64,000 nucleotides of DNA from Gammaproteobacteria bacterium (GTDB lineage Bacteria > Pseudomonadota > Gammaproteobacteria > CAJXQU01): assembly GCA_965238175.1 (NCBI GenBank), contig CBDEGZ010000003.1:222076-286075 (forward strand), written 5' to 3'. A program made the position numbers and the translations under genes. Position 1 is the stretch's first letter. Each line of letters starts with the position of its first letter. Positions 15,701 through 63,504 of the stretch are shown piece after piece. The notes beneath the pieces were generated by a model that was given only the letters and a program-made list of their open reading frames with translations, was not told the origin of the DNA and ran no database searches.

Positions 15701-16702
15701 ATGTCTAGACGTTTATTAATGTTTTTCACACTTTGTTTCGTCGTTCTTAATTTGTCGATTCCAACGAGTATTGCAAAAGGTCCACTTTCCGGGAAAATTT
15801 ATGCAATCGAGGTAGATGGCACGTTTGCTTATATGGGTGCTGGAGAAGAATTGGTTGTTTTTGATGTAACCAACCCCATCAAACCTATTCAGATCGCTAG
15901 TTTAGGGTTATTGGGTGATTCGGTTCAAGACATTCAAATAGTTGGAGATCTTGCTTTTATCGCGACGGGAACAGCAGGATTACATATTATCAATGTTGTA
16001 GATCCGTATCAGCCAGCGAAGGTCAGTAGGCTTGAAACACCAGGCCAGGCCAGTGGTGTCTATGTGGTTGATGGTTATGCTTATCTTGCAGCGGGTTCTG
16101 GTCTTATCATACTGGATGTAAGCGATCCTGAAAAACCGGCTCCTGTCGCATTTTCTGAGACGCTTGGTTGGGATAGTGATGTAATCGTTGCGAAAGGTTA
16201 TGCCTATGTCGCATCTGGTGAAGAAGGCGTTCGGGTTGTAGATGTTAGCAATCCACATGCGCCGACAATTATTGGTTCAATTGATACCCCTAACGATGCA
16301 AATGGCATTTTTGCAGAAAGTGATCTTCTCTTTATTGCTGCAGGATCCGGTGGGTTACAGATCGTAAATATCAGTGATCCATCTAATCCAAAAGAAGTCA
16401 GTGTTGAAGATACGGGTTATGCACGACAAGTCATAGTCAGTTCTGGTTATGCCTATATTGCTTCAGAAAGGAAGGGCTTATGCACAGTAGATATTTCCAG
16501 TCCGACAAGACCAGAGCTTATCAAACGTTACCCTGCTGAAGGTTCGGCTAATAGCATTGATGTAGAGGATGGTTACATTTTCACAGCAGATGGCATTGGT
16601 GGTCTACTGGTTATAAATGGTTTCATGAATCATTCGAGTATATCAGATAGTCAATATTCTCCCGCGCCTGATTCCGTGAGAAGTTTCACACCTAAGAAAT
16701 GA
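15701..16702 (+). CDS. Secreted LVIVD-repeat beta-propeller protein
   Basis: Signal peptide. ~8 repeats of the 'GYAYVA.G..GL.IVDVSDP..P' LVIVD-type motif. Confidence 0.8.
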   Translation: MSRRLLMFFTLCFVVLNLSIPTSIAKGPLSGKIYAIEVDGTFAYMGAGEELVVFDVTNPIKPIQIASLGLLGDSVQDIQIVGDLAFIATGTAGLHIINVVDPYQPAKVSRLETPGQASGVYVVDGYAYLAAGSGLIILDVSDPEKPAPVAFSETLGWDSDVIVAKGYAYVASGEEGVRVVDVSNPHAPTIIGSIDTPNDANGIFAESDLLFIAAGSGGLQIVNISDPSNPKEVSVEDTGYARQVIVSSGYAYIASERKGLCTVDISSPTRPELIKRYPAEGSANSIDVEDGYIFTADGIGGLLVINGFMNHSSISDSQYSPAPDSVRSFTPKK

Positions 16703-16758
16703 TTTCACTTATAAATAATAAACATACAACAATTAAAAAAAGTAGATGGGAAATTGAT

Positions 16759-19700: not shown

Positions 19701-21789
19701 CGTTGCCCTGACAGGTTTAAGTGTCAGTGATAACTATCCTGCGGCGATCACAAATGCGGCTTCAGCGAATGCCAGTAGCACCTGTAGCGGTGGTACTCTG
19801 AATGCGGCAAACGGCGGTAGCAGTATTAGTTATACCGGAGGAAGCGTTGCGGCAGGGTCGAGTTGTACGATAAGTGTGAATGTGACCAGCAACACTGTAG
19901 GCCAACACCTTAATACTAGCGGCGTGGTTAGCAATGCAGAGGCACCGGATAGCACAACAGCGAGTGCAACTTTGGGTGTTACTTCATCAGGGGGTGGTGG
20001 TGGTGGCACTCTAACACTTTTCCCTAGTGACGACGCACGTGTGAGCTTGGGATTTTCCGGAAGTAACTACGGCTCAGACACAGTAGTAAGGGTTCGGGGA
20101 GCAGGTACAAGCTCCCATGAAAGTTACCTGAAATTTAACGTGGCTGGATTAACGAGCATACCTACATCGGCTAAATTACGTCTTTTCGTAACCGATGGAA
20201 GTCCTGATGGCGGTGGTGTATACGTCGTTGGCAGCGGCTGGGATGAATCGACTATCACAGGGAGTAATGCACCTGCAATTAGCGGTAGCCCAATTGCTAG
20301 TTCAGGTTCAGTTACGAATGGAACCTGGGTAGAGATAGATATAGCTTCGGCGATTACAGGCAACGGCACTTATAGTTTTGGTATACGGAGTAATAGCTCG
20401 AATAGTGCTCGTTACAGTTCCAAAGAAGGTACGAATCCACCAGAATTAGTAATTGAATCATCGGGAATTCCTACCCCAGACATAACCGTAACGCCGACAT
20501 CAAATAACTACGGAGATGTTACAGTCAATGGAATGGGTTCAATTAATTTTACGGTACGCAACGATGGAATCGCCACTTTGAATGTGAGTGGTACAAGTTT
20601 GATTGGAAGCGATCCTACAGAGTTCAACATCGACAGTGGTGGTTCATTCAGCCTGACTCAAGGACAAACTCAGGTGGTGAGCGTGAGTTTCAACCCAACG
20701 TCAATTGGTGGTAAGAGTGCAAGCTTACGAATAGCGAGTAACGATCCGAACGAAGATCCACTTGACGTAAGCCTAACTGGTAACGGTGTAGTTAGCGCTC
20801 CAGATATAACGGTCACTCCGAGCACTCACAGCTATGGCGACATTGTTGTAGGAAACTCGGACTCTCTTAACATAGTTATCCGTAATGATGGTAGCCAAAA
20901 CCTGATCGTATCTGCCGTGTCCTTGAGTGGAAGTAATCCGGGGGAATTCAGTATAGACAGCGGCGGTAATGGCGGCATTCTGACTCCTGGACAAAGTCAG
21001 ACGGTTACGGTGAGTTTCAATCCCAGTTCTCTAGGAACTAAGGCCGCAGTTTTAAGTATTCCTAGCGATGACCCGGATGAAAACCCGATCGATGTGGATT
21101 TGAGTGGCACAGGTGTTGATACTCCACTACCAGGTGGTAACGTGACATTCGAAGATATACAGGCTGGCGGTTCATCGAGTGCTACTGCTGTTTCAACTTC
21201 GGGTAATGTGACAGGTGTTAGTGGTGATTTGTATTTAGCGACTATCACCAGTAAATCCTTCAAGACGGTTACATCGGTTACTGGACTAGGTTTAAGTTGG
21301 AGTCTGGTCACGGAGCAATGTGCTGGACGTAACCAGACGGGTGTAACTGTTTGGCAAGCTCAGGGTAGTAGTCCTACCTCCAGCACAGTAACAGCAAATT
21401 TATCAGGAGCTCCAACTAATGCAACAATTACAGTGTCACGTTACTCCGGTGTGAGCCAAACAGATCCCATTGGAAACATTATTTCTGGTAACACTAATGG
21501 TGTGAGCGGAGCTTGTTCTGGAGGCACTGATTCTAATAGTTATAACTTTAATCTAGACACTACTACGCATGGGTCTGTCGTATTTGGAGCTATTGCCATG
21601 CGTAACAAAGCTCATACTGAAGGTTTTGGTTACACTGAACAGGTAGAGTTTGTACAGGGCAGTGGTGGCGGAAGTGCTTCGGTAGCTAACATGGATCAGA
21701 CTATTTTTAGCCCATCGACGGTTAGTGTTGATGGTATATTTAGTAGCAATGTTGACTACGCTGTTATTGGTATTGAGATCAAGCCATAG
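16759..21789 (+). CDS. Giant (~1.68k aa) secreted multi-domain surface protein with glycan-binding / adhesin-like modules
   Basis: Long signal-like N-terminus (…KHKRLNNLMIIIFMMMFGLSIVKA). N-terminal globular region. Two pairs of ~110-aa beta-sandwich repeats ('DITVTP..NYGDV.VG....F.V.NDG...L.VS' type). Two ~150-aa 'TLTL.PSDDARVS...SNYGSD...R.RGAGTSSHESYLKFNV' modules. Two identical ~130-aa 'conserved repeat/DUF11-like' modules. A poly-Gly linker. The start could also be the ORF-track ATG at 16699; 16759 is chosen because it precedes the basic/hydrophobic signal region. Confidence 0.8.
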   Translation: MRRMLASPLRRLQLSLKHKRLNNLMIIIFMMMFGLSIVKAATPLSEAGYRGFSYPTALSQPTGEKPESKLWFNDGFWWGILWSTSGGAHHIHRLDENTQDWIDTGVSVDDRDDSKSDTLWDGNNQKLYVVSHRFISNAGQSATSGNRGELYRYSYSAGSNSYSLDSGFPVEVNAARTETLVIEKDSNDRLWVTYTRDQTVYLNHSGSSDTDWDPTNRPFILPTGDNTVDIGADDNCSIATFNNNIGVMWSNQSDDKMYFSAHPDSASPTTGWSSGVVVFEGAGNRSADDHINLASLDGDPAGEVFAVTKTSESNARNMLLVCDSGCTSSSDWTAYTAYQEGGSVGNPTRPAVVIDTSNRQLYVFTSVSDSGRDIYYKVTDLDNIQFNASSLGSPLIKDSSNSPNNVTSTKQNLNSSTGLAALSATGSRYLHNQFPLSASPSPDITVTPISRNYGDVVVNGVGSFNFIVSNDGTTTLNVSSTSLLGSDSDQFNIDSGNGSFSLNQGQSQTVSLSFNPTTVGNKSATLRIASNDPNEDPFDVSLTGNGVISAPDITVTPSANDYGDIEVGNTVSFNVEIRNDGSENLNVSALSLAGSNPGEFSIDSGQSGSTLAPGQSQVAAVSFNPSSLGDKSAILSIPSNDPDENPSNVDLSGRGISPGMGGGTLTLSPSDDARVSLGFPRSNYGSDTVIRIRGAGTSSHESYLKFNVAGLTGTPTSAKLRLFVTDGSPDGGDVYIVGNSWDESTITAGNAPAISGSPIASAGSVINGIWIEIDITSEITGNGTYSFGMRSNSSNSARYSSKEGANPPELVIEQSGTSGSVTPTLSKSFNPITITSGGISTLTLTINNNGNSVALTGLSVSDNYPAAITNAASANASSTCSGGTLNAANGGSSISYTGGSVAAGSSCTISVNVTSNTVGQHLNTSGVVSSTEAPDSATASATLTVNSEVVAPTLSKSFNPTSITSGGISTLTLTINNNGNSVALTGLSVSDNYPAAITNAASANASSTCSGGTLNAANGGSSISYTGGSVAAGSSCTISVNVTSNTVGQHLNTSGVVSNAEAPDSTTASATLGVTSSGGGGGGTLTLFPSDDARVSLGFSGSNYGSDTVVRVRGAGTSSHESYLKFNVAGLTSIPTSAKLRLFVTDGSPDGGGVYVVGSGWDESTITGSNAPAISGSPIASSGSVTNGTWVEIDIASAITGNGTYSFGIRSNSSNSARYSSKEGTNPPELVIESSGIPTPDITVTPTSNNYGDVTVNGMGSINFTVRNDGIATLNVSGTSLIGSDPTEFNIDSGGSFSLTQGQTQVVSVSFNPTSIGGKSASLRIASNDPNEDPLDVSLTGNGVVSAPDITVTPSTHSYGDIVVGNSDSLNIVIRNDGSQNLIVSAVSLSGSNPGEFSIDSGGNGGILTPGQSQTVTVSFNPSSLGTKAAVLSIPSDDPDENPIDVDLSGTGVDTPLPGGNVTFEDIQAGGSSSATAVSTSGNVTGVSGDLYLATITSKSFKTVTSVTGLGLSWSLVTEQCAGRNQTGVTVWQAQGSSPTSSTVTANLSGAPTNATITVSRYSGVSQTDPIGNIISGNTNGVSGACSGGTDSNSYNFNLDTTTHGSVVFGAIAMRNKAHTEGFGYTEQVEFVQGSGGGSASVANMDQTIFSPSTVSVDGIFSSNVDYAVIGIEIKP
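19223..19985 (+). repeat. Intragenic near-perfect tandem duplication (~390 bp x 2) inside the giant gene
   Basis: Nucleotides ~19223-19612 and ~19613-19985 are almost identical base-for-base (e.g. 'cacaagcggaggtatatcgacactgaccttgacgatcaataacaacggaaatagcgttgccctgacagg...'). The encoded modules are 'PTLSKSFNP.TITSGGISTLTLTINNNGNSVALTGLSVSDNYPAAITNA...'. Confidence 0.9.
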
Positions 21790-21810: not shown

Positions 21811-22305
21811 GTGCCAGTTATTATTTGTGGCACCCTTTATTATTTGTGGCACCCTTTATTATTTGTGGCACCCTTTATTATTTGTGGCACCCTTTATTAT
21901 TTGTGGCACCCTTTATTATTTGTGGCACCCTTTATTATTTGTGGCACCCTTTATTATTTGTGGCACCCTTTATTATTTGTGGCACCCTTTATTATTTGTG
22001 GCACCCTTTATTATTTGTGGCACCCTTTATTATTTGTGGCACCCTTTATTATTTGTGGCACCCTTTATTATTTGTGGCACCCTTTATTATTTGTGGCACC
22101 CTTTATTATTTGTGGCACCCTTTATTATTTGTGGCACCCTTTATTATTTGTGGCACCCTTTATTATTTGTGGCACCCTTTATTATTTGTGGCACCCTTTA
22201 TTATTTGTGGCACCCTTTATTATTTGTGGCACCCTTTATTATTTGTGGCACCCTTTATTATTTGTGGCACCCTTTATTATTTGTGGCACCCTTTATTATT
22301 TGTGG
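21811..22305. repeat. Perfect tandem array: 19-bp unit GTGGCACCCTTTATTATTT x 25, plus one degenerate leading copy
   Basis: Directly visible; the period of 19 is confirmed by the 3-nt shift per 60-nt line. It starts 22 bp after the giant-gene stop and ends inside the last codons of the convergent gene at 22277. No spacers, so it is not a CRISPR array. Confidence 0.95.
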
Positions 22306-23569
22306 AATGGGTCCAACCAGTCCACCCAATGTTTTTACCGAACCGGGTTTTCTTACGATTCCAAAAGGAGGTAGCGTAGTAACAATCAACTAATGGCAAC
22401 TGCCAGGTATCATCACCAGTAGCTGAAAAATTAGCTTCATCATTTAACCAACTGTAAGCTCTTAATAAGGCCTTATCTTGCCAATTGAATGGATCATATC
22501 CTTGTCTCTGAAGAATGATTGCTTGAACGAGTGCACCCTGTAGTGCTTCGTAAACGTAGTTTTCCTTAGGTGGCGGCCATTGAAATCCACCACCTCGGCG
22601 TTGATCATCAGGTAAGACTCCATCTATGGAGTGTCCTTCTTTTTTACAGCCTTTTGGATTGATTCCGACAGGCTTATTTGCGTGGCACTGCCAGGCAAAA
22701 CCATATCTATAAACGAAATTTGAATATGCGTCGCGATCACCAAGCCATCCTTTAAAGACAGTGGCCGCACGGTGGATTTCTGCACGATCATTAAGATATA
22801 CCGCAATTGCTAAACGGCTTGCGCCGGCGTGAGTGCCCCAATTATTAGGTCGCTCTTCATGGGTGGAAATTAAAGTTTTCCTGCTAAGAGTGTCCGGTTG
22901 CGAATAGCGAACATTGCTTAGCCAAGCCTTAAAAAGCACTTCTTGTTTTGGGGAAAGTGTGATGAGATCAGCTGCAATAACATAAGCAGCAAGTTCTCGG
23001 CCCAATGCTAACGTAGAGCCACCTTTTTCTGTTCCCATAATCATCATGATTTGTCCCATTATTTCCTGATGAAAACTCTTTAATTCAATATCACTACATT
23101 GCAGAGATGAAGGCTCTTGGGTACAACGCACATAAACAAGGGCTTTCCCTAAGATATAGACATTGTGTTTTTGTTTATTATTACTTAAGTTCGGCTTGCC
23201 AACTGGTTTAATTGCCTGTTTTTTTAGTTGCTCCCAGGCTTCTCCTTGCATATCTAGATCAGCAAGTTCTTCAGCACTAATCCAAATACTTGTTTTTTCG
23301 GCTGGCACTGGATTTTCGTTTTCAGAAGAATTTTGTTCTAACCCAATAAGTTTACGATCCGATCCGGCATCAGCCAGAGTAACCCCTTCAGAACGAGTAA
23401 CGTCTTTTTTGCTCAGGCGAAGATCTTGTGATGAGAGTTTTTGATCTGTTGAGTACTGATCAGGTTTCTCATAATCGATCATTGTTAGACCAGTAATGGT
23501 TAACAGACTGAGCGCAGTGAGAATTGTACAAAATACGAAAAACCGTCTCATCCTTATTCTTATCTCCAT
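22277..23569 (-). CDS. Secreted alginate-lyase-family (PL5/PF05426-like) polysaccharide lyase
   Basis: Signal peptide (MRRFFVFCTILTALSLLTITG). 'NNWGTHAGASRLAIAVYLNDRAEIHRAATVF' resembles the '[28 protein letters not shown]' catalytic region of alginate lyases. 'YVYEALQGALVQAI' is similar to a conserved helix. This is a by-eye match only. Confidence 0.5.
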   Translation of the reverse strand: MEIRIRMRRFFVFCTILTALSLLTITGLTMIDYEKPDQYSTDQKLSSQDLRLSKKDVTRSEGVTLADAGSDRKLIGLEQNSSENENPVPAEKTSIWISAEELADLDMQGEAWEQLKKQAIKPVGKPNLSNNKQKHNVYILGKALVYVRCTQEPSSLQCSDIELKSFHQEIMGQIMMIMGTEKGGSTLALGRELAAYVIAADLITLSPKQEVLFKAWLSNVRYSQPDTLSRKTLISTHEERPNNWGTHAGASRLAIAVYLNDRAEIHRAATVFKGWLGDRDAYSNFVYRYGFAWQCHANKPVGINPKGCKKEGHSIDGVLPDDQRRGGGFQWPPPKENYVYEALQGALVQAIILQRQGYDPFNWQDKALLRAYSWLNDEANFSATGDDTWQLPLVDCYYATSFWNRKKTRFGKNIGWTGWTHSTNNKGCHK

Positions 23570-29787: not shown

Positions 29788-31179
29788 TTATTCATAATAG
29801 ATATAATTGCTATCTTGATCATCTTCAGCCGGCTCATAAGATTTAAGGATCTGTACACACGCTCCAGCCAAAGCAAGGAATAACCAAAAGTATCTCTGGT
29901 ATGAAAGGTGGAGAAATATCGCAGTGCTTAAGTAGCCAAGAATGCTAAAAATGAAAGCGGTAGCCAGGTGAGCCAATTCTGGTTCGAACAATGACCATCG
30001 GTAACGAACGACTAACAACTGATAGATCATAAAAAAGATGATTCCCATAAATACAAAAAATCCAAAAATACCAGTTTCAGCAGCTAATTCAGGATAGAGT
30101 GAATGGGCTCGCCTATTCGTATTCAGTTGCCTCAAGGCAATCGTTGGGTCGTTCATATACTCTACGGAATAAAACAGACTGTAATGGTGCGGGCCAACAC
30201 CAAGGATGGGATGATCGAGAAAAGCTTTGCTCGCTGCCATCATTTCTGTCAAACGCCCTCTGGTAACCGCATCAGGTTTATGTTGTGTAGTGTCAGAGAC
30301 AAGCCCCTCGACACCGAAAATGGTTTGCATTCTGACAAAGTAGCCTGGAGATACAACGGCAATCAATAATAAAATAACCAGCAAACCACTTAGTAGATGC
30401 CTTATTTTAATATATTTAAAGATCGTTAGAATTAAAGTGAGTAGCAGCATTGAAACAAAAGCACCGCGGGAATAGGTGAGTAATATGCCGCTTAAAATCA
30501 AGCCAACAGATCCGGCCGCAAGGATCTTTTTAGGCCGTTGAAAACGTATTTGGCAAAATATAAAAATGGCTAGTGGTAACAACAGAAGCATATTCTGAGC
30601 ATATCTGTTTGGATCACCTATAGGGCCCGTTGCACGATTGGAACCTCGAACTTTTGTCCGTTGTTTAAGAACAGCACCTTGTTGAAGATTAGGATCTACG
30701 CCATCCCAGTTCTCTATTTTTCTCTGCGCTAACCCTCCAAACTGCACATCATAGGCTCCTGTAGATTCCTGAAAAACAGACATGGAGCCTAAAATGGTGC
30801 CGGCGATCATAAGCACCCAGATCACGCGTTTCAAAGTATCTAGGTTGCGGACTACGTTTATTATTAAGAAATACAACATGATGCCTTCTAGAAAGTATTC
30901 ACCGACCCACTGGAAACCAACAATAGGCTCTTTGGAAAGCAGGGAAGACACTATGCAGATGGTCAGAAAAACAAACATTAGTCCCAACACACGATCAAAA
31001 ATAATTTTTTCGTGGCGGATAAAAATATAAAAACTAAATGGCAGCAGTAGCAGAAGAGCAAAAGAACTAGCGATAACCGGAGGGACGCCATGAAGCGATT
31101 TTGCTATAGCTCCAATATTAGTGAAAAGAATAAATAAAGCAGTCCAAGTAGCGACTTCGAGTTCTTTTGTTGCTGTCAT
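29788..31179 (-). CDS. O-antigen ligase / Wzy-type polymerase family membrane protein
   Basis: ~11 TM helices with a large periplasmic loop. 'LTYSRGAFVSMLLL' Wzy_C-type motif. Confidence 0.7.
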   Translation of the reverse strand: MTATKELEVATWTALFILFTNIGAIAKSLHGVPPVIASSFALLLLLPFSFYIFIRHEKIIFDRVLGLMFVFLTICIVSSLLSKEPIVGFQWVGEYFLEGIMLYFLIINVVRNLDTLKRVIWVLMIAGTILGSMSVFQESTGAYDVQFGGLAQRKIENWDGVDPNLQQGAVLKQRTKVRGSNRATGPIGDPNRYAQNMLLLLPLAIFIFCQIRFQRPKKILAAGSVGLILSGILLTYSRGAFVSMLLLTLILTIFKYIKIRHLLSGLLVILLLIAVVSPGYFVRMQTIFGVEGLVSDTTQHKPDAVTRGRLTEMMAASKAFLDHPILGVGPHHYSLFYSVEYMNDPTIALRQLNTNRRAHSLYPELAAETGIFGFFVFMGIIFFMIYQLLVVRYRWSLFEPELAHLATAFIFSILGYLSTAIFLHLSYQRYFWLFLALAGACVQILKSYEPAEDDQDSNYIYYE

Positions 31180-31870
31180 TTCATTAAGTTATCCATGGTT
31201 TTCGACTTGCTGCTACTAAATTTGTGGGAAATAACCGGTAAGTTCATGATAATTATATCAGTCATTTGCCTATATCTTCCTTACCACTTGGTCACTATGT
31301 AATATGAACTAAAAAAACTACATTCAATTATCGGAATTTAAAGTTAAGGTAATTAAAAGAACTTGCCATGTCAGGTTCAACGATATTGTAGATTAACTTG
31401 TGATCCTGAACGGTAAGTTATGTCAAAGAATAATAAAAATGTGTGGGTTTCTTGCAAAAAATAGTTAACCATTAGATCTTATATTGTTTATTGAGTTATA
31501 TTCCATATAGATAGCTAGTTTGGGATATAGGATCCATTTTGCATTTTGCTTGGAATGATATGGAACTGGCCGATATAAATATCACAAATAAGTGACAAGT
31601 GTAGTCCGTTTCATTAGAATAAAAACGGTATGGAAATTCAGAGAGTTAGAGTTATATTCTGAAAAAGTCTCATAAGATTCAACCGCATAGAAATAAGTGC
31701 AAGGAGCCATATCTATTCTACAATATTAACCAATAGCTCCTTCGTTAAAACTTAAGACAGCGCAATGGATGTTGTTTTTCTTTTGGAGAATATTTGTTTT
31801 AGCAAGTAAAACTTAAGAGTTTCATTACAAGTTGATGAGATTAAATTAAGAATAAAAACAAGAGGTTATC

Positions 31871-32938
31871 ATGAAAAAAACTATTTTTGTAATAATGATG
31901 GTCATCTTCAATGCCAGTTGTACTGGTATGAAAATGGTTGAGTCTTTACCTGACGTGGAAGGTGTCACAATACAGCCAATATCTGCGGAATTAATCAATA
32001 ATTTAGCCTCTGATCAACAATCGGAAGTGAGGAAGTTGTCTTCGAATCTGGGTTCATTAAATGATGGAAATTACGACTACCGAGTCGGGCCTCAGGATGT
32101 TTTGAATATTACGGTATGGGATCATCCTGAATTGACGATACCTCAAGGTCAGTTCCGTAATCCAGATGTTGCCGGGAATCTTGTCTTTGAAGACGGGACA
32201 ATTTACTTTCCATATGTGGGATATCTCCAAGTAGCTGGAAAGACGATGCCACAAATTCAAGGAATGCTAGTTAAAGGCTTAGATGACACCATCCAAGATC
32301 CACAAGTTTCTGTCACTGTCGCCAACTATCGCAACCAGAGAGCATATGTTGTAGGTGAAGTTAATACGCCTGGGCCTAAAGCAATCACTGATGTGCCATT
32401 AACAGTCGTAGAAGCGGTAGGTCAAGCTGGAGATGCAACTTCGGATGCAGATTTAACAGATGTGAAGCTGACCCGTGATGGAATCGTCTACAAAATTGAT
32501 ATGTTAGGGATATACCAAGACGGAGATCTCAATCAAAATGTATTACTCAAACATGGTGATGTATTACATATACCGAACCAAAGTGAACGTAAAGTTTTTG
32601 TTGTAGGGGAAACGTCCAAGCAAATTTCATTGCTTATTGATCAGAATCGACGGACAACGACATTGACTGAAGCAATAAGTGATGCCGGCGGTGTCGATCA
32701 GATCACTTCTAATCCAGGGCGTATTTTTGTATTGCGTGGTACAGATAATCCCGAAGAAAAATTAATTTACCATATTAATGCAAAGTCACCGGATGCCTTG
32801 ATATTAGCAAATCATTTTCAGATATGGCCCCGTGATGTGATTTATGTAGGAACAGCAGGTATCACGCGTTGGAACCGAGTTATTTCCCAATTGTTTCCAT
32901 CATCGGTATCAAGCGTCATACGTACAGTCGATAAATAG
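31871..32938 (+). CDS. Polysaccharide export outer-membrane protein (Wza/EpsE-like)
   Basis: Lipoprotein-like signal (MVIFNASCTG). Poly_export motif 'YRVGPQDVLNITVWDHPELT...G.I.FPYVGYLQVAGKT', SLBB-like repeats. Confidence 0.85.
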   Translation: MKKTIFVIMMVIFNASCTGMKMVESLPDVEGVTIQPISAELINNLASDQQSEVRKLSSNLGSLNDGNYDYRVGPQDVLNITVWDHPELTIPQGQFRNPDVAGNLVFEDGTIYFPYVGYLQVAGKTMPQIQGMLVKGLDDTIQDPQVSVTVANYRNQRAYVVGEVNTPGPKAITDVPLTVVEAVGQAGDATSDADLTDVKLTRDGIVYKIDMLGIYQDGDLNQNVLLKHGDVLHIPNQSERKVFVVGETSKQISLLIDQNRRTTTLTEAISDAGGVDQITSNPGRIFVLRGTDNPEEKLIYHINAKSPDALILANHFQIWPRDVIYVGTAGITRWNRVISQLFPSSVSSVIRTVDK

Positions 32939-33078
32939 AAGTTAACTGATTAGTGGGTCCTTTGAAGATTAAAGAACCCATAGTGTTCTCCGTTATGACA
33001 AACAAAGAATTACTGATATAAGGATCTTATTTTTATACTACAACAGTCTGCTACAGACAAGTTAATGCCGAAAAAATT

Positions 33079-35883
33079 ATGAACGATACAGCGAAAAAAA
33101 GGGAAGAAGAAATTGAGAATGGACAGGGAAGTCGCAAGAAGAGGTATTCTTGGGCATCTAAAATTAAAGCTGTTAAACAAGTTCTAGGCGGTCGGCCCAT
33201 GGATGAAGTTGCAAGTGAATATGGAGTGCGTCCTAAAACGATAAGCAAGTGGTGTCGAAACTGGAAGAAAGAATTTGCAAAGAACGTAGTAGATGATCAT
33301 AGCAAAGTAGATAGCCCTAAAGATTCGCTTGTAACTCGTGCTGTTGAGCATTGGAATGATTCAGCTGATGATTTAATTGTTGATGCAATAGGTAAAAACT
33401 TAAATGCAACACATAGGATTGATAATTCACCTCCAAGACATTCGACAGAAATAACGAACACATCATCACATCATGAAAGAAGAACCATAAAAAATAGTGA
33501 GGATATCTACAAGCAGCAACTAAATGTTCAACAATTCTCAAAAAATCAATCAAGTAGGAGGATAATTGAACCACAAACCGCATTCTCAGGCCAGGCATCC
33601 CTTAGAGAAGTCTTGGGAATACTACAGGAATCTAAGTGGTTTATTAGCCGGATCGTTCTACTTACGGCACTTCTGGGAATATTACATCTTTGGTTTGTAC
33701 CGCCTATTTACCGAGCAGATGCAATACTGGAAATTGAAGAAAATGTTCGTGGCACAGGTGCCGTCCTTGATAATTCTAACGATCTGAATGAGGAAGGTGC
33801 CATTGTTAGTGAGGAAGTCGAGATCCTTAAATCCAGAGCAGTTGTTCGTGAAGTTGTTAATAATCTTAAATTAGATTTCATTATGAGTCCAAAATACTTC
33901 CCGGTTATCGGGGAGGCAATCGCGCGAAAAAATCCTATATTAACAAACTCAAAGGAAGGTTTATCTGAAGTACCTTTATCTGCGGCATGGATTGTTAAGC
34001 AGATTCCATCAATTGAAGAGCCTCTAAAATCCACATATGCATATATTCAAACCTTAAAAACAAAATTATATGATCAACTCAAGTCTTCAAAATATGCGTG
34101 GGGAAATGAACAAATTATTGTAGAAGAAATGATCGTGCCTGATAGTTTATTGGGTGTGAAATATACCGTTATAGCTACGGATAACAAACAATATCAATTG
34201 CTTGATCAAGATGGACAAAAATTAGGAATGGGCAAAATTGGAGAGCCACTTGAGATCTCATTGCCGGATGGAAAGTTTGTCTTGCTTCTTTCAGACCTTA
34301 CTGCCACGACAGGTAAGCATTTTGAAATAACGAGAGTTCCGTTGATTGTCGCGATTGGTCAACAACAGAAAAATGTGATCGTGCGAGAGAAAGCGGGTGT
34401 TGTTAACTCTGGTCTTTTGGGCGTAACTCTAGAAGGAGCGGACAGGTTTAGCATTGTATCCATCATTAACGAGTTAATGGATACTTATATTCGCCAAAAT
34501 GTTGATCGTAAAGCAGCTAATGCTGAAAAGAAATTAAGCTTCATGGAGGAGCAGCTTGCTGTTCTCGAAGAAAGCATGAGTACAGCAGAGCAAGGATTGA
34601 ACAACTATCGACAGCAAGAAGGTTCCGTTGATCTGGCGACAGAGTCGGAAGTAATTCTAAAGCGAATTGTTGAAGTAGAATCGGAAATTTCAAGTCTTAC
34701 CAGGAATCGTCTTGAGCTTATCCAAAAATTTAAACCCAGACATCCTAAGATTCGGGCATTAGATGGACAGGTAGGTACATTAAAAAGAGAGCTGGAAAAA
34801 TTGAACGGAAAGGTAAAGAAATTACCAGATACACAACAGCAAGTACTCAGTATGACAAGAGACGTCGATGTTCAAGCTAAACTTTACTCTTTTCTTTATA
34901 ATAAAATTCAAGAACTTAAAGTTATTACTGCCGGTTCTATTGGAAACTTAAGAGTTGTTGATTATGCAACACTGCCGGTTGAGCCTGTCAAACCGCAAGG
35001 AAAAGTGATAATCGTAGCGTATCTATTGCTGGGTTTAATTCTAGGGGTTGGCGCCAGCTTTGTTAGAAGGGGAATGCATGCAGGGGTACATGATCCAGAG
35101 GTTATTGAGAAACAACTGGGCCTTGAGGTTCTTGCGGAGCTACCTTTGAGCCCACAACAGGCTAAACTTAAGAAAAGCAGCATTTTTGGTAAAAGTTCTA
35201 AAAAAGGTATTCTTGCGATTGTTAATCCAGAAGATCCAACCATTGAGGGTCTGCGTAATCTTAGAACCTCACTTTACTTCTCTCAGTTTGAGTCGAAAAA
35301 TAATCTGATAGTCATTACTGGGCCTGCACCAGAAGTAGGCAAATCATTTGTTTCTATAAATTATGCTGCTGTTTTAGCAAGTTCGGGTAGTCGTGTTTTA
35401 GTGATTGATGCAGATTTTCGCAGGGGCACTATCAGTGAATATGTCGGGATAGAACGCCATAGTGGGCTATCTGATTTGATCCTTGGGAAAATGAGTGCTG
35501 AGGAAGTGATTCAAGAAACAGATGTTGAAGGTCTGGACGTCATCACATCAGGCAAAATGCCTTCGAATCCTTCAGAGCTGCTACTACACGAAAACTTCGC
35601 AAGAGTATTAGAAAACATTTCGGCAAACTATAATTTTGTGATCATTGATACACCCCCAATCTTGGCATTTTCTGATGCCACGGTAATCGCACGACTTGCT
35701 GGCTCAGCTTTGCTTGTGGTCAAGTCTGGAATGCATTCGGTACGCCAGTTGGAATACACCATCAAGCAATTAAATAAAGCTGACGTCAAGTTAGAAGGTG
35801 TTGTTTTCAATGGACTGGATATAACAAATACAGCTTATGGGTACGGGCACAGTTATGGTTATTCGTACTCTTACAAAAATTAA
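33079..35883 (+). CDS. Polysaccharide co-polymerase / BY-kinase (Wzc/EpsG-like tyrosine autokinase) with unusual N-terminal transposase-like HTH extension
   Basis: TM1, periplasmic coiled-coil Wzz-like region, TM2, then Walker A 'GPAPEVGKSFVSINYAA', Walker B 'VIIDTPP', and a Tyr-rich tail 'YGYGHSYGYSYSYKN'. The first ~110 residues ('KRYSWASKIKAVKQVLGGRPMDEVASEYGVRPKTISKWCRNWKK') look like an IS3-OrfA-type HTH. The true start may be internal, possibly non-ATG. Confidence 0.85.
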   Translation: MNDTAKKREEEIENGQGSRKKRYSWASKIKAVKQVLGGRPMDEVASEYGVRPKTISKWCRNWKKEFAKNVVDDHSKVDSPKDSLVTRAVEHWNDSADDLIVDAIGKNLNATHRIDNSPPRHSTEITNTSSHHERRTIKNSEDIYKQQLNVQQFSKNQSSRRIIEPQTAFSGQASLREVLGILQESKWFISRIVLLTALLGILHLWFVPPIYRADAILEIEENVRGTGAVLDNSNDLNEEGAIVSEEVEILKSRAVVREVVNNLKLDFIMSPKYFPVIGEAIARKNPILTNSKEGLSEVPLSAAWIVKQIPSIEEPLKSTYAYIQTLKTKLYDQLKSSKYAWGNEQIIVEEMIVPDSLLGVKYTVIATDNKQYQLLDQDGQKLGMGKIGEPLEISLPDGKFVLLLSDLTATTGKHFEITRVPLIVAIGQQQKNVIVREKAGVVNSGLLGVTLEGADRFSIVSIINELMDTYIRQNVDRKAANAEKKLSFMEEQLAVLEESMSTAEQGLNNYRQQEGSVDLATESEVILKRIVEVESEISSLTRNRLELIQKFKPRHPKIRALDGQVGTLKRELEKLNGKVKKLPDTQQQVLSMTRDVDVQAKLYSFLYNKIQELKVITAGSIGNLRVVDYATLPVEPVKPQGKVIIVAYLLLGLILGVGASFVRRGMHAGVHDPEVIEKQLGLEVLAELPLSPQQAKLKKSSIFGKSSKKGILAIVNPEDPTIEGLRNLRTSLYFSQFESKNNLIVITGPAPEVGKSFVSINYAAVLASSGSRVLVIDADFRRGTISEYVGIERHSGLSDLILGKMSAEEVIQETDVEGLDVITSGKMPSNPSELLLHENFARVLENISANYNFVIIDTPPILAFSDATVIARLAGSALLVVKSGMHSVRQLEYTIKQLNKADVKLEGVVFNGLDITNTAYGYGHSYGYSYSYKN

Positions 35884-35956: not shown

Positions 35957-37171
35957 TCAGGAATACCGAATGAGAAGATTAAGAAATTGCACAATGTTTT
36001 TTTCTTGATCAAATTCGTTTATCACTTTTACTCTACCCTCTTTCCCCAAAGCAATTTTTTTTGTAGGTTCTTTTTGTATATCCATTAGTGCTTTAGCTAG
36101 ACCATCGGTATCGCGAGGCTCTACTAATATCCCAGTTTCCCCATTATCCACAAGCTCAGGTATGCCCGATAACTGACTTGATATTACGGGCAACCCACTT
36201 GCCATCGCCTCCATTAATACAACGGGTATACCTTCTCGTTTGCCTTGCTTTGTCGGAACACTAGGTAGAGTAAAAACATCCGATCTGGCCAACAAATCAA
36301 GAACCTTGTCCCTTGGTAATCCACCGTGGATATGAAATTTATCCTTCAAATTCAGATCATTGATGAGTTTCTCGATGCTGTCGCGCAGAGGGCCATACCC
36401 AACCAGATGGCACTCAAAGTTTATGTTCTTATCAAGTAATATTTTGCATGCTTCGACCAGATATTTATGACCCTTTACTTCTTCATATGAAGCAACACAT
36501 AAAATTTGCAAAGGACGATCATCTGGTGATTTTTCAGTAGGAAAAAAGAGCTTAGTATCGATACCGCAGCGGATGACGTGTATTTTTTCACGATCTTTTT
36601 CCCCTGTTTCAGCTACCATCAATTCTTTGTTATAGGAGGATACGGTTGTCACAAAACTAGCCGCCTGGATCTTTTTATCTAACATCCTTCGATCAACATG
36701 TAGATCTGAACCATGTGCAGTAAAGCTGAACGGAATACTGGTTAGTCGATTAATAATTAATGCCGTGATTGTTGGGTGAGTCGCAAAGTGTGCATGAACA
36801 TGCTCCACGCCAAGCTTTTCCATCTCATAAGCGAAAAGTACACTCTTTGGCAAAATCCCAAGTGCTCCTATGAAAAAATTCCGGCTCCCGAAGGTACCTG
36901 TCAGAACTTCTCGAATGATCTTAATATAGTTGGTGAAATCGCGACGGATATAGTGCCAATGTGCTGCGAGAATTTTAAGCGATAAGAAGGGATGAAAATG
37001 AGCTCTATCTGTCAGCTCTTGAGCTTCTTTGTGAGTCACAGCTGTCTTTTCTCGCAACAGTGGGAAAATTTCTACTTTAACTCCCTGTTCTTCAAGTGCG
37101 ATAATTTCATAAAGTATGAATGTTTCAGTTAGCTTTGGAAAGCGAGACATTATGTAGGCAACTTTTTGCAT
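35957..37171 (-). CDS. GT4-family glycosyltransferase
   Basis: 'EGIPVVLMEAMASGLPVISSQLSGIPELV..GETGILVEP' E-x7-E retaining-GT motif. Confidence 0.85.
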   Translation of the reverse strand: MQKVAYIMSRFPKLTETFILYEIIALEEQGVKVEIFPLLREKTAVTHKEAQELTDRAHFHPFLSLKILAAHWHYIRRDFTNYIKIIREVLTGTFGSRNFFIGALGILPKSVLFAYEMEKLGVEHVHAHFATHPTITALIINRLTSIPFSFTAHGSDLHVDRRMLDKKIQAASFVTTVSSYNKELMVAETGEKDREKIHVIRCGIDTKLFFPTEKSPDDRPLQILCVASYEEVKGHKYLVEACKILLDKNINFECHLVGYGPLRDSIEKLINDLNLKDKFHIHGGLPRDKVLDLLARSDVFTLPSVPTKQGKREGIPVVLMEAMASGLPVISSQLSGIPELVDNGETGILVEPRDTDGLAKALMDIQKEPTKKIALGKEGRVKVINEFDQEKNIVQFLNLLIRYS

Positions 37172-37197: not shown

Positions 37198-38196
37198 TCA
37201 GGTGGCGGGTGTTTTAGGAATGGGATTAATAACTGAGTGATCATGATGCTTGTTACGATGTCGCCACTTGTCAATATAGCTAAACCACTCTTGTAACCTT
37301 ATTTTAAATAGTGCCAATGAGGTTCGCTGTGTGACTTCGGTACGGTAAAGTCGCAGCGGGTTAGCTGAATTCATATTATTAAAACCATCAATGACAGTGA
37401 CCGCAAGCTCTATTTTTTCCTGTTTGAGTATATCCATAATTGCTTGATCGTGGTTACCATTCGGGTACGCAAACACCGGAAGCACCGCACCAATTTCATT
37501 TTTTAGATCATTATATGAACCACTAATCTCTTCATGTGCTGACTCCAGAGTCAGTCTTGTTAATAAGGGGTGTGTGCGAGTATGCGCACCGAGTGTCACA
37601 CCTTCATTAGCAATTACTCTAAGTTGATCCCAATCCATTGTACTCTGTTTGATTACGTTTACTATTTTCAGGCGCTCACACACATCATCAACAAGGGCCA
37701 TTGCATCACTATGAGGAAGTGTTTTTACATGATTTTGTAAAAGCTTAAGACTCTGCATTTTTTTTGTATGATCCTCAAGTAAAAGAGTCGAGAAGTTAGT
37801 GTTAGCAATTTGCAGTTGGTTTTTTGAAGTTTGGGCAAATGCTGCATAGAGCTTATCCCACCAGAAAACGAGATCGGTTTGTCCAGGATAGCTTGTTGGG
37901 ATAAATACTGTAGCGGGCAAATTAAGTTTTTTAAGGATTGGCCATGCAATCTCGATAAAATCAAAATAACCATCATCAAACGTAATTAATACAGCCCTAT
38001 CAGGTAGTTGTTCTTGTGAAAGAGTTGCGGCCAAGACCTGTTCCATTGATACAACATTGTATGACTGAGCCAAGTATTTCATTTGCTCAGCAAATATAGC
38101 CGGTGTTGCACTTATAATTCTGGGATTGAGAACACTATTTTTTGAGGGATCTGCTACACGATGATAAGTCAGGATGCGTAATAGATTTTTTTTCAT
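37198..38196 (-). CDS. Polysaccharide deacetylase (NodB-homology domain)
   Basis: 'VLITFDDGYFDFIEIAWPILKKLNLPATVFIPTS' TFDDG motif, 'GAHTRTHP' His-box. Confidence 0.85.
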   Translation of the reverse strand: MKKNLLRILTYHRVADPSKNSVLNPRIISATPAIFAEQMKYLAQSYNVVSMEQVLAATLSQEQLPDRAVLITFDDGYFDFIEIAWPILKKLNLPATVFIPTSYPGQTDLVFWWDKLYAAFAQTSKNQLQIANTNFSTLLLEDHTKKMQSLKLLQNHVKTLPHSDAMALVDDVCERLKIVNVIKQSTMDWDQLRVIANEGVTLGAHTRTHPLLTRLTLESAHEEISGSYNDLKNEIGAVLPVFAYPNGNHDQAIMDILKQEKIELAVTVIDGFNNMNSANPLRLYRTEVTQRTSLALFKIRLQEWFSYIDKWRHRNKHHDHSVINPIPKTPAT

Positions 38197-39575: not shown

Positions 39576-40802
39576 TCACGCGGTTAGACTTTTCGAGACT
39601 AATTTTTTTATGGTTTCCGGTATTTGTGCTATTGCAGGTAGCGGATCATCTAGGCACAGAAGATCAAATTTTCGATATGGATTAAAAAAACCAGCGAAGG
39701 CATAGACAGCTCGCATTCGACCCGGGGACTGAAAAAAATGAAATTTCTTTTTTTGACCAAGAACACAAGCAATCCACAACATATCACGCTGCAAATCACG
39801 ACTTCTAACACCGGTTTTATATTGTTTTGGGTTGATCGACTTTACCGTGTCTGGACCGTTCAATGTCATTTCAGTCAGCATTAATGGGAAATCAACACCA
39901 CTAAGCACAGCCAGAGGTAACGAGCCCCAAACACGGCCATTTATCTCCATCAAAACCTTTTCAGAACCATTAACCTTAAATTCCACCATTGCAAGCCCAG
40001 TCCATTTTAGTTCTTTGAGCATTGCTTCAGAATAATTAAAAAGTTCTGGATCCACCTCAACACCTTCTCGGTATGAGCTTGCACCTCCAGAGACGGGATA
40101 CTCCCTGAGTCTTTTGTGTGAAAATGTAGCAATCAAGTTTCCTTCATGCATCAGCATTTCAACACCATAACCTCGACCAGTATGATATTTCTGCAGTAGT
40201 ACCTGGCATTTACCTTCAAAGGATTGCATTATTTGTTCAAGTTCTATCTTTGAAGATACATAGGTCACTTCAAAGGATTCTACTTTGCCATCCTTACTAA
40301 ACTTGGCAGATGTTATCGGTTTTAAAACAATAGGCCACCCTAAATCATCTGCGTACTGTAAAGCTTCTACAGCTGTCTCAACTACCTCTGTTCTCGGAAC
40401 TGGCACTCCCACTTTTCGCGCAAGTTCCATCGTTTTTTCTTTATCGGTGACAATACGGTATTTCTCTGTCGAAGGAAGAGCAAGGCGCGTTTGTGCTTCA
40501 AACAAATCACGACTTTTAATAATTGGCTGAATAACGACTTCTGTTGTCGGAATGAGAAGATCTATATCTTCAATTTTAACTTCGTTTAAAAGTAACTCTG
40601 CCGCTTTATCGGGATTATTTTCAGGTGAGGGATATAGCAATGTCTTCCAGACATATTTTGATTTAAAACCAATGCTGTTAGGATCACTATCAGCGGCGAT
40701 CACTTTGTAACCCGCGCGACCAAGTGAACGGATTATTGCAACCGCACAACTCCTTGAGACGTCTGCAACAAGCACCGTGGCCTTATATTCTTCCCTTTGC
40801 AT
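39576..40802 (-). CDS. ATP-grasp domain enzyme (carboxylate-amine/thiol ligase type)
   Basis: N-terminal Rossmann-like pre-ATP-grasp (VLVADVSRSCAVAIIRSLGRAGYKVIAAD) and a central ATP-grasp fold ('WPIVLKPITSAKFSKDG', 'MVEFKVNGSEKVLMEINGR'). Confidence 0.65.
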   Translation of the reverse strand: MQREEYKATVLVADVSRSCAVAIIRSLGRAGYKVIAADSDPNSIGFKSKYVWKTLLYPSPENNPDKAAELLLNEVKIEDIDLLIPTTEVVIQPIIKSRDLFEAQTRLALPSTEKYRIVTDKEKTMELARKVGVPVPRTEVVETAVEALQYADDLGWPIVLKPITSAKFSKDGKVESFEVTYVSSKIELEQIMQSFEGKCQVLLQKYHTGRGYGVEMLMHEGNLIATFSHKRLREYPVSGGASSYREGVEVDPELFNYSEAMLKELKWTGLAMVEFKVNGSEKVLMEINGRVWGSLPLAVLSGVDFPLMLTEMTLNGPDTVKSINPKQYKTGVRSRDLQRDMLWIACVLGQKKKFHFFQSPGRMRAVYAFAGFFNPYRKFDLLCLDDPLPAIAQIPETIKKLVSKSLTA

Positions 40803-44742: not shown

Positions 44743-45968
44743 TGTAGAAATTCAGATTTGATCTGACAGTTACCCAATTATCAGTAACCGACTGTCAGGT
44801 TAAGTTTAATTCACAAACTTTTCCTTCCAGATAGCTTGTCCGTCGATGAGTGTTTCCATCGGCGTCCTCCCGCAGCACATTTTGCCTTGGTGAGTTCGTT
44901 GAGTATTGTATTTGAGCAACCATTCGTCAAGGTCGAGTTGCAGTTCATCAATCGATTGGTAAATTTTCTTACGCAAAGCGACTTGATAAAACTCATTGAG
45001 GATCGTCTTATGGAATCGCTCACAAATACCATTCGTCTGAGGTGATTTGACCTTGGTTTTGGTGTGTTCGATATTGTTCAACGCCATATAAAGCTGATAA
45101 TCATGCTGGTCAGCTCGCCCACAATACTCCGTCCCTCTATCTGTCAAAATGCGCAACATAGGCAAACGTTGTTCTTCGTAGAATGGGAGGACGCGGTCAT
45201 TGAGCATGTCAGCTGCCGTAATCGGTGTTTTAGTCGGGTACAGTTTCGCGTGAGCGACCTTGCTGTAAGTATCAACAAACGTTTGTTGATAAACCCGACC
45301 AATGCCTTTGAAAGTACCGACATAGTAAGTATCTTGCGAGCCAAGATAACCAGGGTGTGCCGTTTCTATCTCGCCACAAGCCTCATCGTCGTCTTTTTTG
45401 CGTTCCATCGCCGCGACTTGAGACTCAGTGAGGATCAAGCCTTCACCAGCTACCTTATCAGACAATGCCTTCAGGCGATCTTTAAAGCAAGCAAGACCAT
45501 GACGAAGCCAGATACAACGAACGCCACTGGGTGAGACAAATGTTCCCCGTTTGCGCAGCTCGTTACTGGTGCGCGTTTGACCATGTGCGGGCTCTTCCAG
45601 TGCATACTCGAGCACAACGGTTTCAATAGCCGGGTCGATTCTGTTTTTAAGATTTGGGGTACGCCGATTACGATCAAACAAGGCTTCTACACCGCCTTCA
45701 TCAGCCGCTTCTTTGTAGCGATAAAATATATCTCTGGACAAACCCATCATCTTGCAGGCTTTTGAGACATTGCCGAGTTCTTCAGCGAGATTGAGTAGAC
45801 CAACTTTATGTTTTATAACTTTGTCATTAGTATGAATCATGAGAGTTACCTCTTTGTGTTTTGATGTTTACGTTGCAGTTACATCAAAGCGGGTAACTCT
45901 CACTAAATCAAGCGTCGCTACGCTCCGCTTGATTTAGTGATGTGTCAGATTGGGTCTAAACTTCTACA
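44743..45968 (-). mobile_element. IS481-family insertion sequence, copy 1 (1226 bp) with 7-bp target-site duplication GTTTACT
   Basis: Identical to the copy at 62266-63491. Imperfect ~24-bp terminal inverted repeats: TGTAGAAaTTcAGAtttgATCTGA / TGTAGAAgTTtAGAcccaATCTGA. Flanking direct repeat gtttact (44736-44742 and 45969-45975). Confidence 0.85.
44806..45840 (-). CDS. IS481-family DDE transposase (344 aa)
   Basis: N-terminal HTH ('LSRDIFYRYK') and rve-type integrase core ('...RILTDRGTEYCG...', 'NGICERFHKTILNEF'). It differs from the second copy by one residue (I/T). Confidence 0.9.
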   Translation of the reverse strand: MIHTNDKVIKHKVGLLNLAEELGNVSKACKMMGLSRDIFYRYKEAADEGGVEALFDRNRRTPNLKNRIDPAIETVVLEYALEEPAHGQTRTSNELRKRGTFVSPSGVRCIWLRHGLACFKDRLKALSDKVAGEGLILTESQVAAMERKKDDDEACGEIETAHPGYLGSQDTYYVGTFKGIGRVYQQTFVDTYSKVAHAKLYPTKTPITAADMLNDRVLPFYEEQRLPMLRILTDRGTEYCGRADQHDYQLYMALNNIEHTKTKVKSPQTNGICERFHKTILNEFYQVALRKKIYQSIDELQLDLDEWLLKYNTQRTHQGKMCCGRTPMETLIDGQAIWKEKFVN

Positions 45969-45982
45969 GTTTACTTATATTG

Positions 45983-63491: not shown

Positions 63492-63504
63492 TTTAAAAAC
63501 AGCG

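Follow-up and report, generated by a model that had tools for sequence, protein, structure and literature searches.

The 64,000-nt window analyzed here, a stretch of contig CBDEGZ010000003.1 (positions 222,076 to 286,075, assembly GCA_965238175.1) from a gammaproteobacterium of the lineage CAJXQU01, carries the gene wzc as a complete open reading frame (ORF) at 33079-35883. The ORF encodes an intact Wzc, a bacterial tyrosine kinase (BY-kinase) of the polysaccharide co-polymerase type 2a (PCP-2a), whose cytoplasmic N-terminus is ~170 residues longer than usual and opens with a transposase-type helix-turn-helix (HTH). Judged by sequence comparison, the predicted HTH is a block of ~50 codons present in this protein only; the codons on either side of it, in the same reading frame, are homologous to the inherited tails of sister Wzc proteins. 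We hold this anatomy and this origin with good confidence. The explanation taken as a whole, in which a real and lineage-specific HTH-Wzc fusion also serves a function, is quite possible, yet it falls short of being probable.

A transposase-type HTH on an intact Wzc

The initial annotation had reported a transposase-type HTH opening the wzc ORF in frame, and the profile and structure predictions bear this out. Pfam HTH_Tnp_1 (PF01527; curated cut-off 24.1 bits) matches residues 19-63, scoring 29.5 bits when the whole protein is searched and 32.4 bits (E = 1.1e-7) when the search is confined to the first 194 residues. AlphaFold2 (AF2) predicts a three-helix fold, and the reading frame runs uninterrupted from the HTH into the first transmembrane segment (TM1). 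The peptide quoted in that annotation, KRYSWASKIKAVKQVLGGRPMDEVASEYGVRPKTISKWCRNWKK, corresponds to residues 21-64. A second profile, HTH_28 (PF13518), also matches above its cut-off (27.6 versus 25 bits), and the NCBIfam transposase models for IS3, IS481, IS630 and IS66 TnpA give weak matches that stay far under their cut-offs. When residues 1-175 were modelled from the single sequence, AF2 placed helices at residues 25-36, 41-48 and 52-76 (the third ending at residue 71 or 76), with a predicted local distance difference test score (pLDDT) of 83-89 for residues 21-60, 74 for residues 61-70 and <50 elsewhere; the same three helices were recovered in the full-length model. The segment follows the pattern of a basic stretch, (Y/F)S, a helix, G and a second helix, with TISKW within the recognition helix, and it is strongly basic, with a net charge of +10 across 47 residues. 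Its best sequence match in the PDB is 2elh, a CENP-B/pipsqueak-type domain of the same superfamily as the transposase HTHs. A Foldseek search of the PDB returned weak generic HTH matches (E of at least 0.065), which agree with an HTH without identifying one. With a profile score above the gathering threshold, a predicted fold and open codons, the HTH is more than a chance resemblance.

The likeness to IS3 OrfA, which the initial annotation had extended over the first ~110 codons, holds for residues ~19-70 but not for residues ~77-171, which form a disordered polar linker. Past helix 3 of the HTH the sequence is disordered and lacks a leucine zipper, and the pLDDT of residues 68-170 is ~30-43 in the full-length model. 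The coding potential of the linker (33307-33591) is positive in the Wzc frame. For residues 1-84, the GC content and the GC content at third codon positions (GC3) are 0.409 and 0.333, matching the averages of 0.412 and 0.336 for the genes of the window and giving no sign of recent import; composition is also uniform over the HTH junctions.

Downstream of the tail, the protein has the complete architecture of a Wzc. Pfam recognizes Wzz (residues 174-263), WZC_N, GNVR (584-664) and an AAA_31/CbiA P-loop domain (744-914), and the NCBIfam Wzc/Etk and eps_fam tyrosine-autokinase models match the ORF, with TIGR01007 scoring 171 bits against a cut-off of 108 over residues 725-927. In the juxtamembrane helix and TM1, residues E177, K186 and W187 are invariant in the Wzc alignment, and the full-length AF2 model shows helices at residues 175-184 and 186-206 with a pLDDT of 88-95. 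Hydrophobic segments at residues 186-211 and 637-663 match the TM1 and TM2 expected for Wzc. All nucleotide-binding motifs are intact: the Walker A motif, which reads GPAPEVGKS in the translation, Walker A' (LVIDADFR, residues 774-781) and Walker B (FVIIDTPP, residues 853-860). The C-terminal tyrosine cluster, YGYGHSYGYSYSY, covers residues 920-932, and six tyrosines lie among the final 20 residues. The full-length AF2 model, built with 33 homologues, is confident across the entire Wzc body. By sequence, the protein therefore combines the features of a PCP-2a BY-kinase, namely two transmembrane segments with Wzz/GNVR, a P-loop kinase, a tyrosine cluster and an adjoining wza gene. The intact motifs suggest that it may autophosphorylate on tyrosine and cycle through an octamer.

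Sister proteins, origin of the block and start of translation

We searched a collection of 5.8 billion clusters with the full-length Wzc. The search returned a 100% identical protein in NCBI/ENA (P0001), encoded on a 3.33-Mb contig, followed by three sister proteins (P0002, P0003 and P0004) at 56-60% identity, and the next matches had at most 40% identity. The three sisters are 872-886 residues long, and two cluster members, P0090 and P0092, have 945 and 920 residues. A first metagenome scan gave no matches; a second yielded one further contig (L012), which encodes a Wzc at 65% identity and begins at residue ~323, so without the N-terminus. A scan of the genome contigs gave distant matches to the Wzc C-terminus only, at 26-33% identity, and exact look-ups of P0001 and of the window's Wza and GT4 proteins retrieved no record. 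The order wza-wzc-GT4-deacetylase recurs in the sister loci L001 and L010, and a third locus, L011, begins at wzc and continues with the GT4 and deacetylase genes.

The length of the cytoplasmic tail can be read from the conserved YRAD just past TM1, which lies at residue 211 here, at residues 159-167 in the sisters and at residues 44-86 in distant homologues (located in 20 of 29), indicating that the long tail is a trait of a small clade. The sister tails comprise 130-190 residues and are acidic, rich in Ser, Glu and Asp and of low complexity, some with tandem peptide repeats, and they have no HTH; an HTH remnant was not found in any frame of the sister loci either (best E = 1.2). As to the extension, then, the nearest orthologues also have a long tail ahead of TM1, and what this nearest clade shares with the window protein is the tail without the HTH block. 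In L010 and its relatives (the P0002/P0090 tails), tandem IDIDLTDLEK repeats are seen, and near-identical cluster members range from 881 to 945 residues. This variation in tail length between near-identical proteins suggests that the tail is a hotspot of in-frame length change.

Both flanks of the HTH align with sister sequence. On the distal side, residues 81-194 match residues 30-150 of P0004 (BLASTP, E = 2e-10) and residues 130-194 match P0092 (E = 4e-14), with the tail next to the HTH having diverged to ~27% identity with its orthologues. On the proximal side, the nucleotides around the start codon (33070-33112) align with locus L011 at 33 of 42 positions, with a score of 42 compared to 17.4 +/- 3.0 for shuffled sequences, none of which reached the observed score in 500 trials. 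In this alignment, ATG 33079 of the window lies opposite an AGG of the sister, and the ATG of the sister lies opposite an AGG at 33100 (codon 8) of the window; a one-base indel restores the frame. The translation start thus appears to have shifted by seven codons inside an orthologous region. Between the flanks, residues ~6-29 of the sisters are replaced here by residues ~13-80, and the net gain of ~50 residues is the HTH.

For relatives of the block itself, 1.84 billion cluster representatives were searched exhaustively by phmmer with residues 1-174 as the query; the 48 matches all involve the HTH only, at 23-41% identity. The best single-domain relative is a 98-residue HTH protein (P0081) with 35% identity. 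One protein of 771 residues with an HTH at 18-80 (P0080) was considered as a second HTH-Wzc and rejected, being a multi-HTH, low-complexity protein without Wzc motifs. The closest HTH relatives (P0041, P0042, P0044 and P0079) consist almost wholly of tandem transposase-type HTH repeats, with 6-12 matched stretches in proteins of 421 to 4219 residues, an odd and apparently uncharacterised architecture.

Whether the complete HTH is made depends on where translation starts. The in-frame start codons before TM1 are ATG 33079 (M1), ATG 33199 (M41), GTG 33226 (V50) and TTG 33613 (L179), confirming the earlier statement that no in-frame ATG lies between residue 41 and TM1. A start at L179 is unlikely because most of the conserved juxtamembrane helix would be lost, and the homology of residues 81-171 to the sister tails places the start upstream, at M1, M41 or V50. 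If M41 or V50 were used, the full HTH would never be made and codons 1-40 would be an untranslated leader. Such an internal start would be in line with the lack of a Shine-Dalgarno sequence at M1, with the ~146 residues that would remain between M41 and TM1, close to the length of the sister tails, and with one MAFFT alignment that put the ATGGATG at the start of L001 opposite the ATGGATG of the window at M41. However, M41 has no Shine-Dalgarno sequence and V50 only a 4-nt GTGA match, so neither improves on M1 in its ribosome-binding site, and roughly half the genes of the window likewise have no Shine-Dalgarno sequence. The orthologous start region lies at 33070-33112 and not at 33199; this significant alignment overruled the first MAFFT alignment, and M41 was rejected as the ancestral start. 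Codons 1-40 are coding-like, with a coding potential of 0.236 in frame compared to -0.38 and -0.65 in the other frames (0.359 +/- 0.146 for the genes of the window), and the 59 codons open upstream of M41 are rare in shuffled window sequence (p ~0.02). Helix 1 of the HTH, expected by both the profile and AF2, is encoded upstream of M41, and only M1 yields an intact HTH. The orthologous start region, the coding potential of codons 1-40, the helix encoded there and the rarity of the open codons favor M1, and we conclude that translation very probably starts at ATG 33079. An internal start is quite improbable, and the non-ATG variant offered in the initial annotation is unlikely, as L179 would cut into the conserved helix and V50 would truncate the HTH.

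The polysaccharide locus and other features of the window

The coordinates of wzc, its domains and the surrounding genes are collected in the table. The gene wza lies directly 5' of wzc, and the two are probably co-transcribed. A scan of the spacer between them revealed no promoter-like or terminator-like site, no Rfam match and no end of an insertion sequence (IS), and repeats within the spacer are at chance level only. In the classical gene arrangement, wza-wzb-wzc, a low-molecular-weight phosphotyrosine phosphatase gene (wzb) lies between the two; no wzb was found between wza and wzc or among the subset of window ORFs scanned. Upstream, a 690-nt AT-rich stretch (31180-31870, GC ~0.31-0.34) separates wza from the divergent Wzy_C-like gene. 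Near the locus, sigma-70-like promoters are matched only within this stretch, on the forward strand at 31592-31620 and 31631-31658. This stretch is a natural place to seek a binding site for the Wzc HTH, as a candidate only.

Table. Features of the wzc ORF and of the neighboring polysaccharide genes in the window
Feature	Position	Strand	Extent or basis
Wzy_C-like gene	29788-31179	-	
wza, outer-membrane polysaccharide export lipoprotein	31871-32938	+	Pfam Poly_export, SLBB_2, Wza_C
wza-wzc spacer	32939-33078	+	140 nt
Start region orthologous to the sister wzc start region	33070-33112	+	Local alignment to L011, MAFFT
wzc ORF, complete	33079-35883	+	934 residues plus stop codon, ATG start
Transposase-class HTH, residues 19-65	33133-33273	+	Pfam, AF2
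Disordered polar cytoplasmic linker, residues 77-171	33307-33591	+	pLDDT <50 in both models
Conserved juxtamembrane helix (alpha1 equivalent, residues 172-185) and TM1 (186-207)	33592-33699	+	Alignment, AF2, hydropathy
Periplasmic polysaccharide co-polymerase domain (Wzz/WZC_N/GNVR), residues 208-640	33700-34998	+	Pfam; AF2 confident
TM2, residues 641-666	34999-35076	+	Hydropathy and AF2 helix 641-666
Cytoplasmic BY-kinase domain	35251-35874	+	TIGR01007, Walker motifs, Tyr cluster
GT4 glycosyltransferase gene	35957-37171	-	
Polysaccharide deacetylase gene	37198-38196	-	
ATP-grasp gene	39576-40802	-	

Housekeeping genes (glnA, proA, bioA, a proton/sodium pyrophosphatase gene and addAB-like genes) flank the locus, indicating that it is chromosomal. 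By its GlnA the organism falls within the Gammaproteobacteria, the best named relatives (~81-83% identity) being Thiohalomonadales, Methylophaga and an endosymbiont of the scaly snail. At 3316-5817 on the forward strand, an ORF of 833 codons combines an N-terminal ATPase of the type associated with the XrtA/PEP-CTERM system with C-terminal ankyrin-type repeats, which hints that the neighborhood may be part of an exosortase-type exopolysaccharide system.

Two IS481-like elements of 1231 bp, 99.7% identical to each other, are located at 44743-45973 and 62266-63495, each with a transposase of 344 residues (HTH_29 and rve) on the reverse strand. The near-identity of the two copies suggests recent transposition in this genome, and the elements have no sequence kinship with the Wzc HTH. 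A perfect tandem array of a 19-nt unit (TTATTATTTGTGGCACCCT, 25.7 copies, 100% matches) occupies 21818-22305, just 3' of an ORF of 1696 codons (16699-21789, forward strand) and overlapping the 3' end of an ORF on the reverse strand (22277-23569); the array is open in all three forward frames. The 1696-codon ORF itself contains a 387-nt unit repeated 1.9 times with 95% identity (19223-19967), an internal domain duplication.

Possible function, alternative explanations and known systems

In Escherichia coli Wzc, the N-terminal helix (alpha1) packs against the start of the tyrosine-rich tail, and the dephosphorylated protein is an octamer that dissociates upon autophosphorylation of that tail (PMC8285477). 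In Bacillus subtilis, the kinase PtkA phosphorylates a tyrosine inside the HTH of the regulator FatR, which abolishes DNA binding (PMC3814354). Translation from ATG 33079 would yield a Wzc that carries its HTH on a flexible leash of ~100 residues. The HTH would reside on the kinase side of the membrane, with the leash beside the kinase domain and the tyrosine tail, in up to eight copies per ring. A lone transposase HTH without a leucine zipper would bind DNA weakly, and effective binding would rely on multivalency, that is, on the avidity offered by Wzc in its dephosphorylated, octameric form. Target genes would then have their transcription, or their positioning at the membrane, coupled to the cycle of assembly and phosphorylation that the export machine goes through, and the obvious candidate target would be the polysaccharide locus itself, with feedback on its own transcription. 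In another version of this scheme, the neighboring kinase could act on the HTH itself, releasing the DNA by phosphorylation of Tyr23 or Tyr48.

That the HTH has been retained for DNA binding, coupled to the assembly state of Wzc, is our preferred mechanism, which we put forward tentatively. The specific scheme, in which the octamer would capture DNA and autophosphorylation would release it, by ring disassembly or through Tyr23 or Tyr48, such that the assembly state is read out as transcription, is unlikely in our estimate. Retention is argued from the intact HTH profile and fold, the host-like codon usage, the lack of a close relative and the neighboring tail, which has drifted to ~27% identity; the argument is indirect and hinges on the age of the insertion.

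A number of observations weigh against a functional fusion. The fusion is a singleton, to which no test for conservation or purifying selection applies: of the 40 Wzc homologues listed, P0001 alone contains PF01527, and none of the 48 HTH relatives has been shown to be a Wzc. Of the initial proposal of a domesticated HTH fused to a BY-kinase, the anatomy is favored, with a domain predicted to fold lying in frame between homologous flanks, and the domestication, meaning selection for a function, is hypothetical. Disordered tails tolerate insertions, and the sister tails carry tandem peptide repeats. The HTH reaches a pLDDT of only 53-71 in the full-length AF2 model, its start codon at 33079 has no Shine-Dalgarno sequence, and the IS3 transposase model NF033516 (transpos_IS3) gives 20-25 bits against a cut-off of 160, the leucine zipper and the second domain by which transposase OrfA proteins dimerise being absent. 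Nothing in the locus stands out as a candidate operator, nor does any inverted repeat. The direction of the event can also be read either way, as a gain here or a loss in the sisters, because the outgroups lack the whole tail.

Almost as likely as the preferred mechanism is a neutral insertion, in which an HTH fragment of a mobile element came to lie in frame within a permissive disordered tail, where it is translated and functionless and has not yet decayed. This real possibility agrees with the singleton status of the fusion in the collections searched, with a disordered tail whose sister counterparts vary in length and repeat content, with a genome that harbors active IS elements (the two IS481-like copies) and with an HTH that has neither a dimerisation module nor a recognizable target site. 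The points on the other side are not decisive. The exhaustive search found no donor-like sequence of at least 40% identity, although the collection behind it includes the Wzc of this very genome, and across all searches no relative exceeded ~38% identity; the block already resembles its host in codon usage and GC3; and the HTH has kept its profile and fold next to a strongly diverged tail, a comparison in which the age of the insertion matters.

Two further explanations were considered. The initial annotation had raised the possibility that an IS remnant supplies the 5' end or the start codon, and a decayed IS3-family element could in principle have left its orfA to provide the wzc promoter, start codon and first codons. 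The HTH_Tnp_1 class is typical of IS3 OrfA, and the weak NCBIfam matches to IS3, IS481, IS630 and IS66 models point the same way. However, orthologues that lack the HTH have a homologous start region, both HTH flanks are homologous to sister tails, and the wza-wzc spacer of 140 nt is no longer than the orthologous 153 nt in L001. Neither terminal inverted repeats nor a frameshift site with orfB were found, Pfam detected no rve/DDE fragment in the ORF, and tblastn and blastn found no second copy of the N-terminal region in the window. No significant inverted or direct repeats surround the HTH block; one flanking direct repeat, GGAAGAAGAAATTG / GGAAGAAAGAATTTG, was rejected because 162 of 1000 shuffles reached its score. 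As a proxy for an IS database we used 72,556 plasmids, among which blastn with 32939-33500 gave no match and the single tblastn match to residues 1-90 was a weak one from Streptomyces (38% identity, E = 5e-3). A separate word-index protein search with residues 1-194 found nothing, missing even P0001, which the full-length query recovers, and its null result is uninformative. This explanation is largely refuted and, in our view, barely credible. The second is an assembly or sequencing artefact, in which an indel or a chimeric join would have wrongly linked wzc to a small HTH gene. It could be suspected because the region contains A-runs (A7 at 33094-33100, for example), a source of error in long-read assemblies, and because the fusion occurs in one assembly only. 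It is nonetheless very improbable: there is no separate gene between wza and wzc in the orthologous loci, the composition is uniform over the junctions, and the same-frame homology of both flanks to sister tails means that at least two compensating errors would be needed.

The window protein shares with E. coli Wzc/Etk the cytoplasmic helix, TM1, the periplasmic co-polymerase domain, TM2, the P-loop kinase, the tyrosine cluster and the wza partner. It differs in having 185 cytoplasmic residues before TM1, including the HTH and a disordered linker of ~100 residues, compared to ~30 in E. coli Wzc, and in having no wzb adjoining wzc in the window. The NCBIfam Wzc/Etk models align over residues 343-933 with a score of 527, under the equivalog cut-off of 1068, indicating a distant family member rather than an orthologue of E. 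coli Wzc. The sister metagenomic proteins (P0002, P0003, P0004, P0090 and P0092) are closer, sharing the gene order, the long tail, the start region, the distal tail and the juxtamembrane helix, but their tails are acidic and lack an HTH, whereas the window protein has a basic one. With IS3 OrfA/HTH_Tnp_1 and HTH_28 proteins it has the three-helix HTH class in common and differs from IS3 OrfA in its membrane-protein context and in lacking a leucine zipper, a frameshift signal, a DDE/rve partner, inverted repeats and multiple copies. The Wzc HTH is not part of an insertion sequence; the fold class alone is shared.

To our knowledge, BY-kinases act on gene expression solely by an indirect route, the phosphorylation of separate regulators, and neither an HTH-Wzc fusion nor a Wzc with its own DNA-binding head was found in the literature or sequence collections searched. 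The layout of the window protein, with an HTH (residues 19-70), a linker (77-171), TM1 (186-207) and a periplasmic domain, resembles that of ToxR, TcpP and CadC, which have an N-terminal cytoplasmic DNA-binding domain of the OmpR-type winged-helix class, a linker, a single transmembrane segment and a periplasmic sensor. The likeness is one of layout only: the window protein has no Trans_reg_C match, and its transposase-type HTH sits on an export component with two transmembrane segments and a kinase of its own. By a ToxR/CadC-like logic, DNA binding at the membrane would depend on the oligomeric state. Compared to PtkA and FatR, which are separate proteins in B. subtilis (PMC3814354), kinase and HTH are joined here in one polypeptide, and phosphorylation of Tyr23 or Tyr48 is hypothetical.

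The singleton status of the HTH-Wzc fusion limits its general importance, and the case is a warning against annotating such ORFs as 'IS-disrupted'. If the HTH is idle, the protein would be a well-delimited example of a disordered tail accepting a whole folded domain in frame. If the HTH works, a single protein would link polysaccharide export to transcription, and bacteria would offer a clean case in which a membrane machine of the host has taken up the DNA-binding domain of a mobile element. A captured transposase HTH would then have given rise to a membrane-tethered regulator of a new kind.

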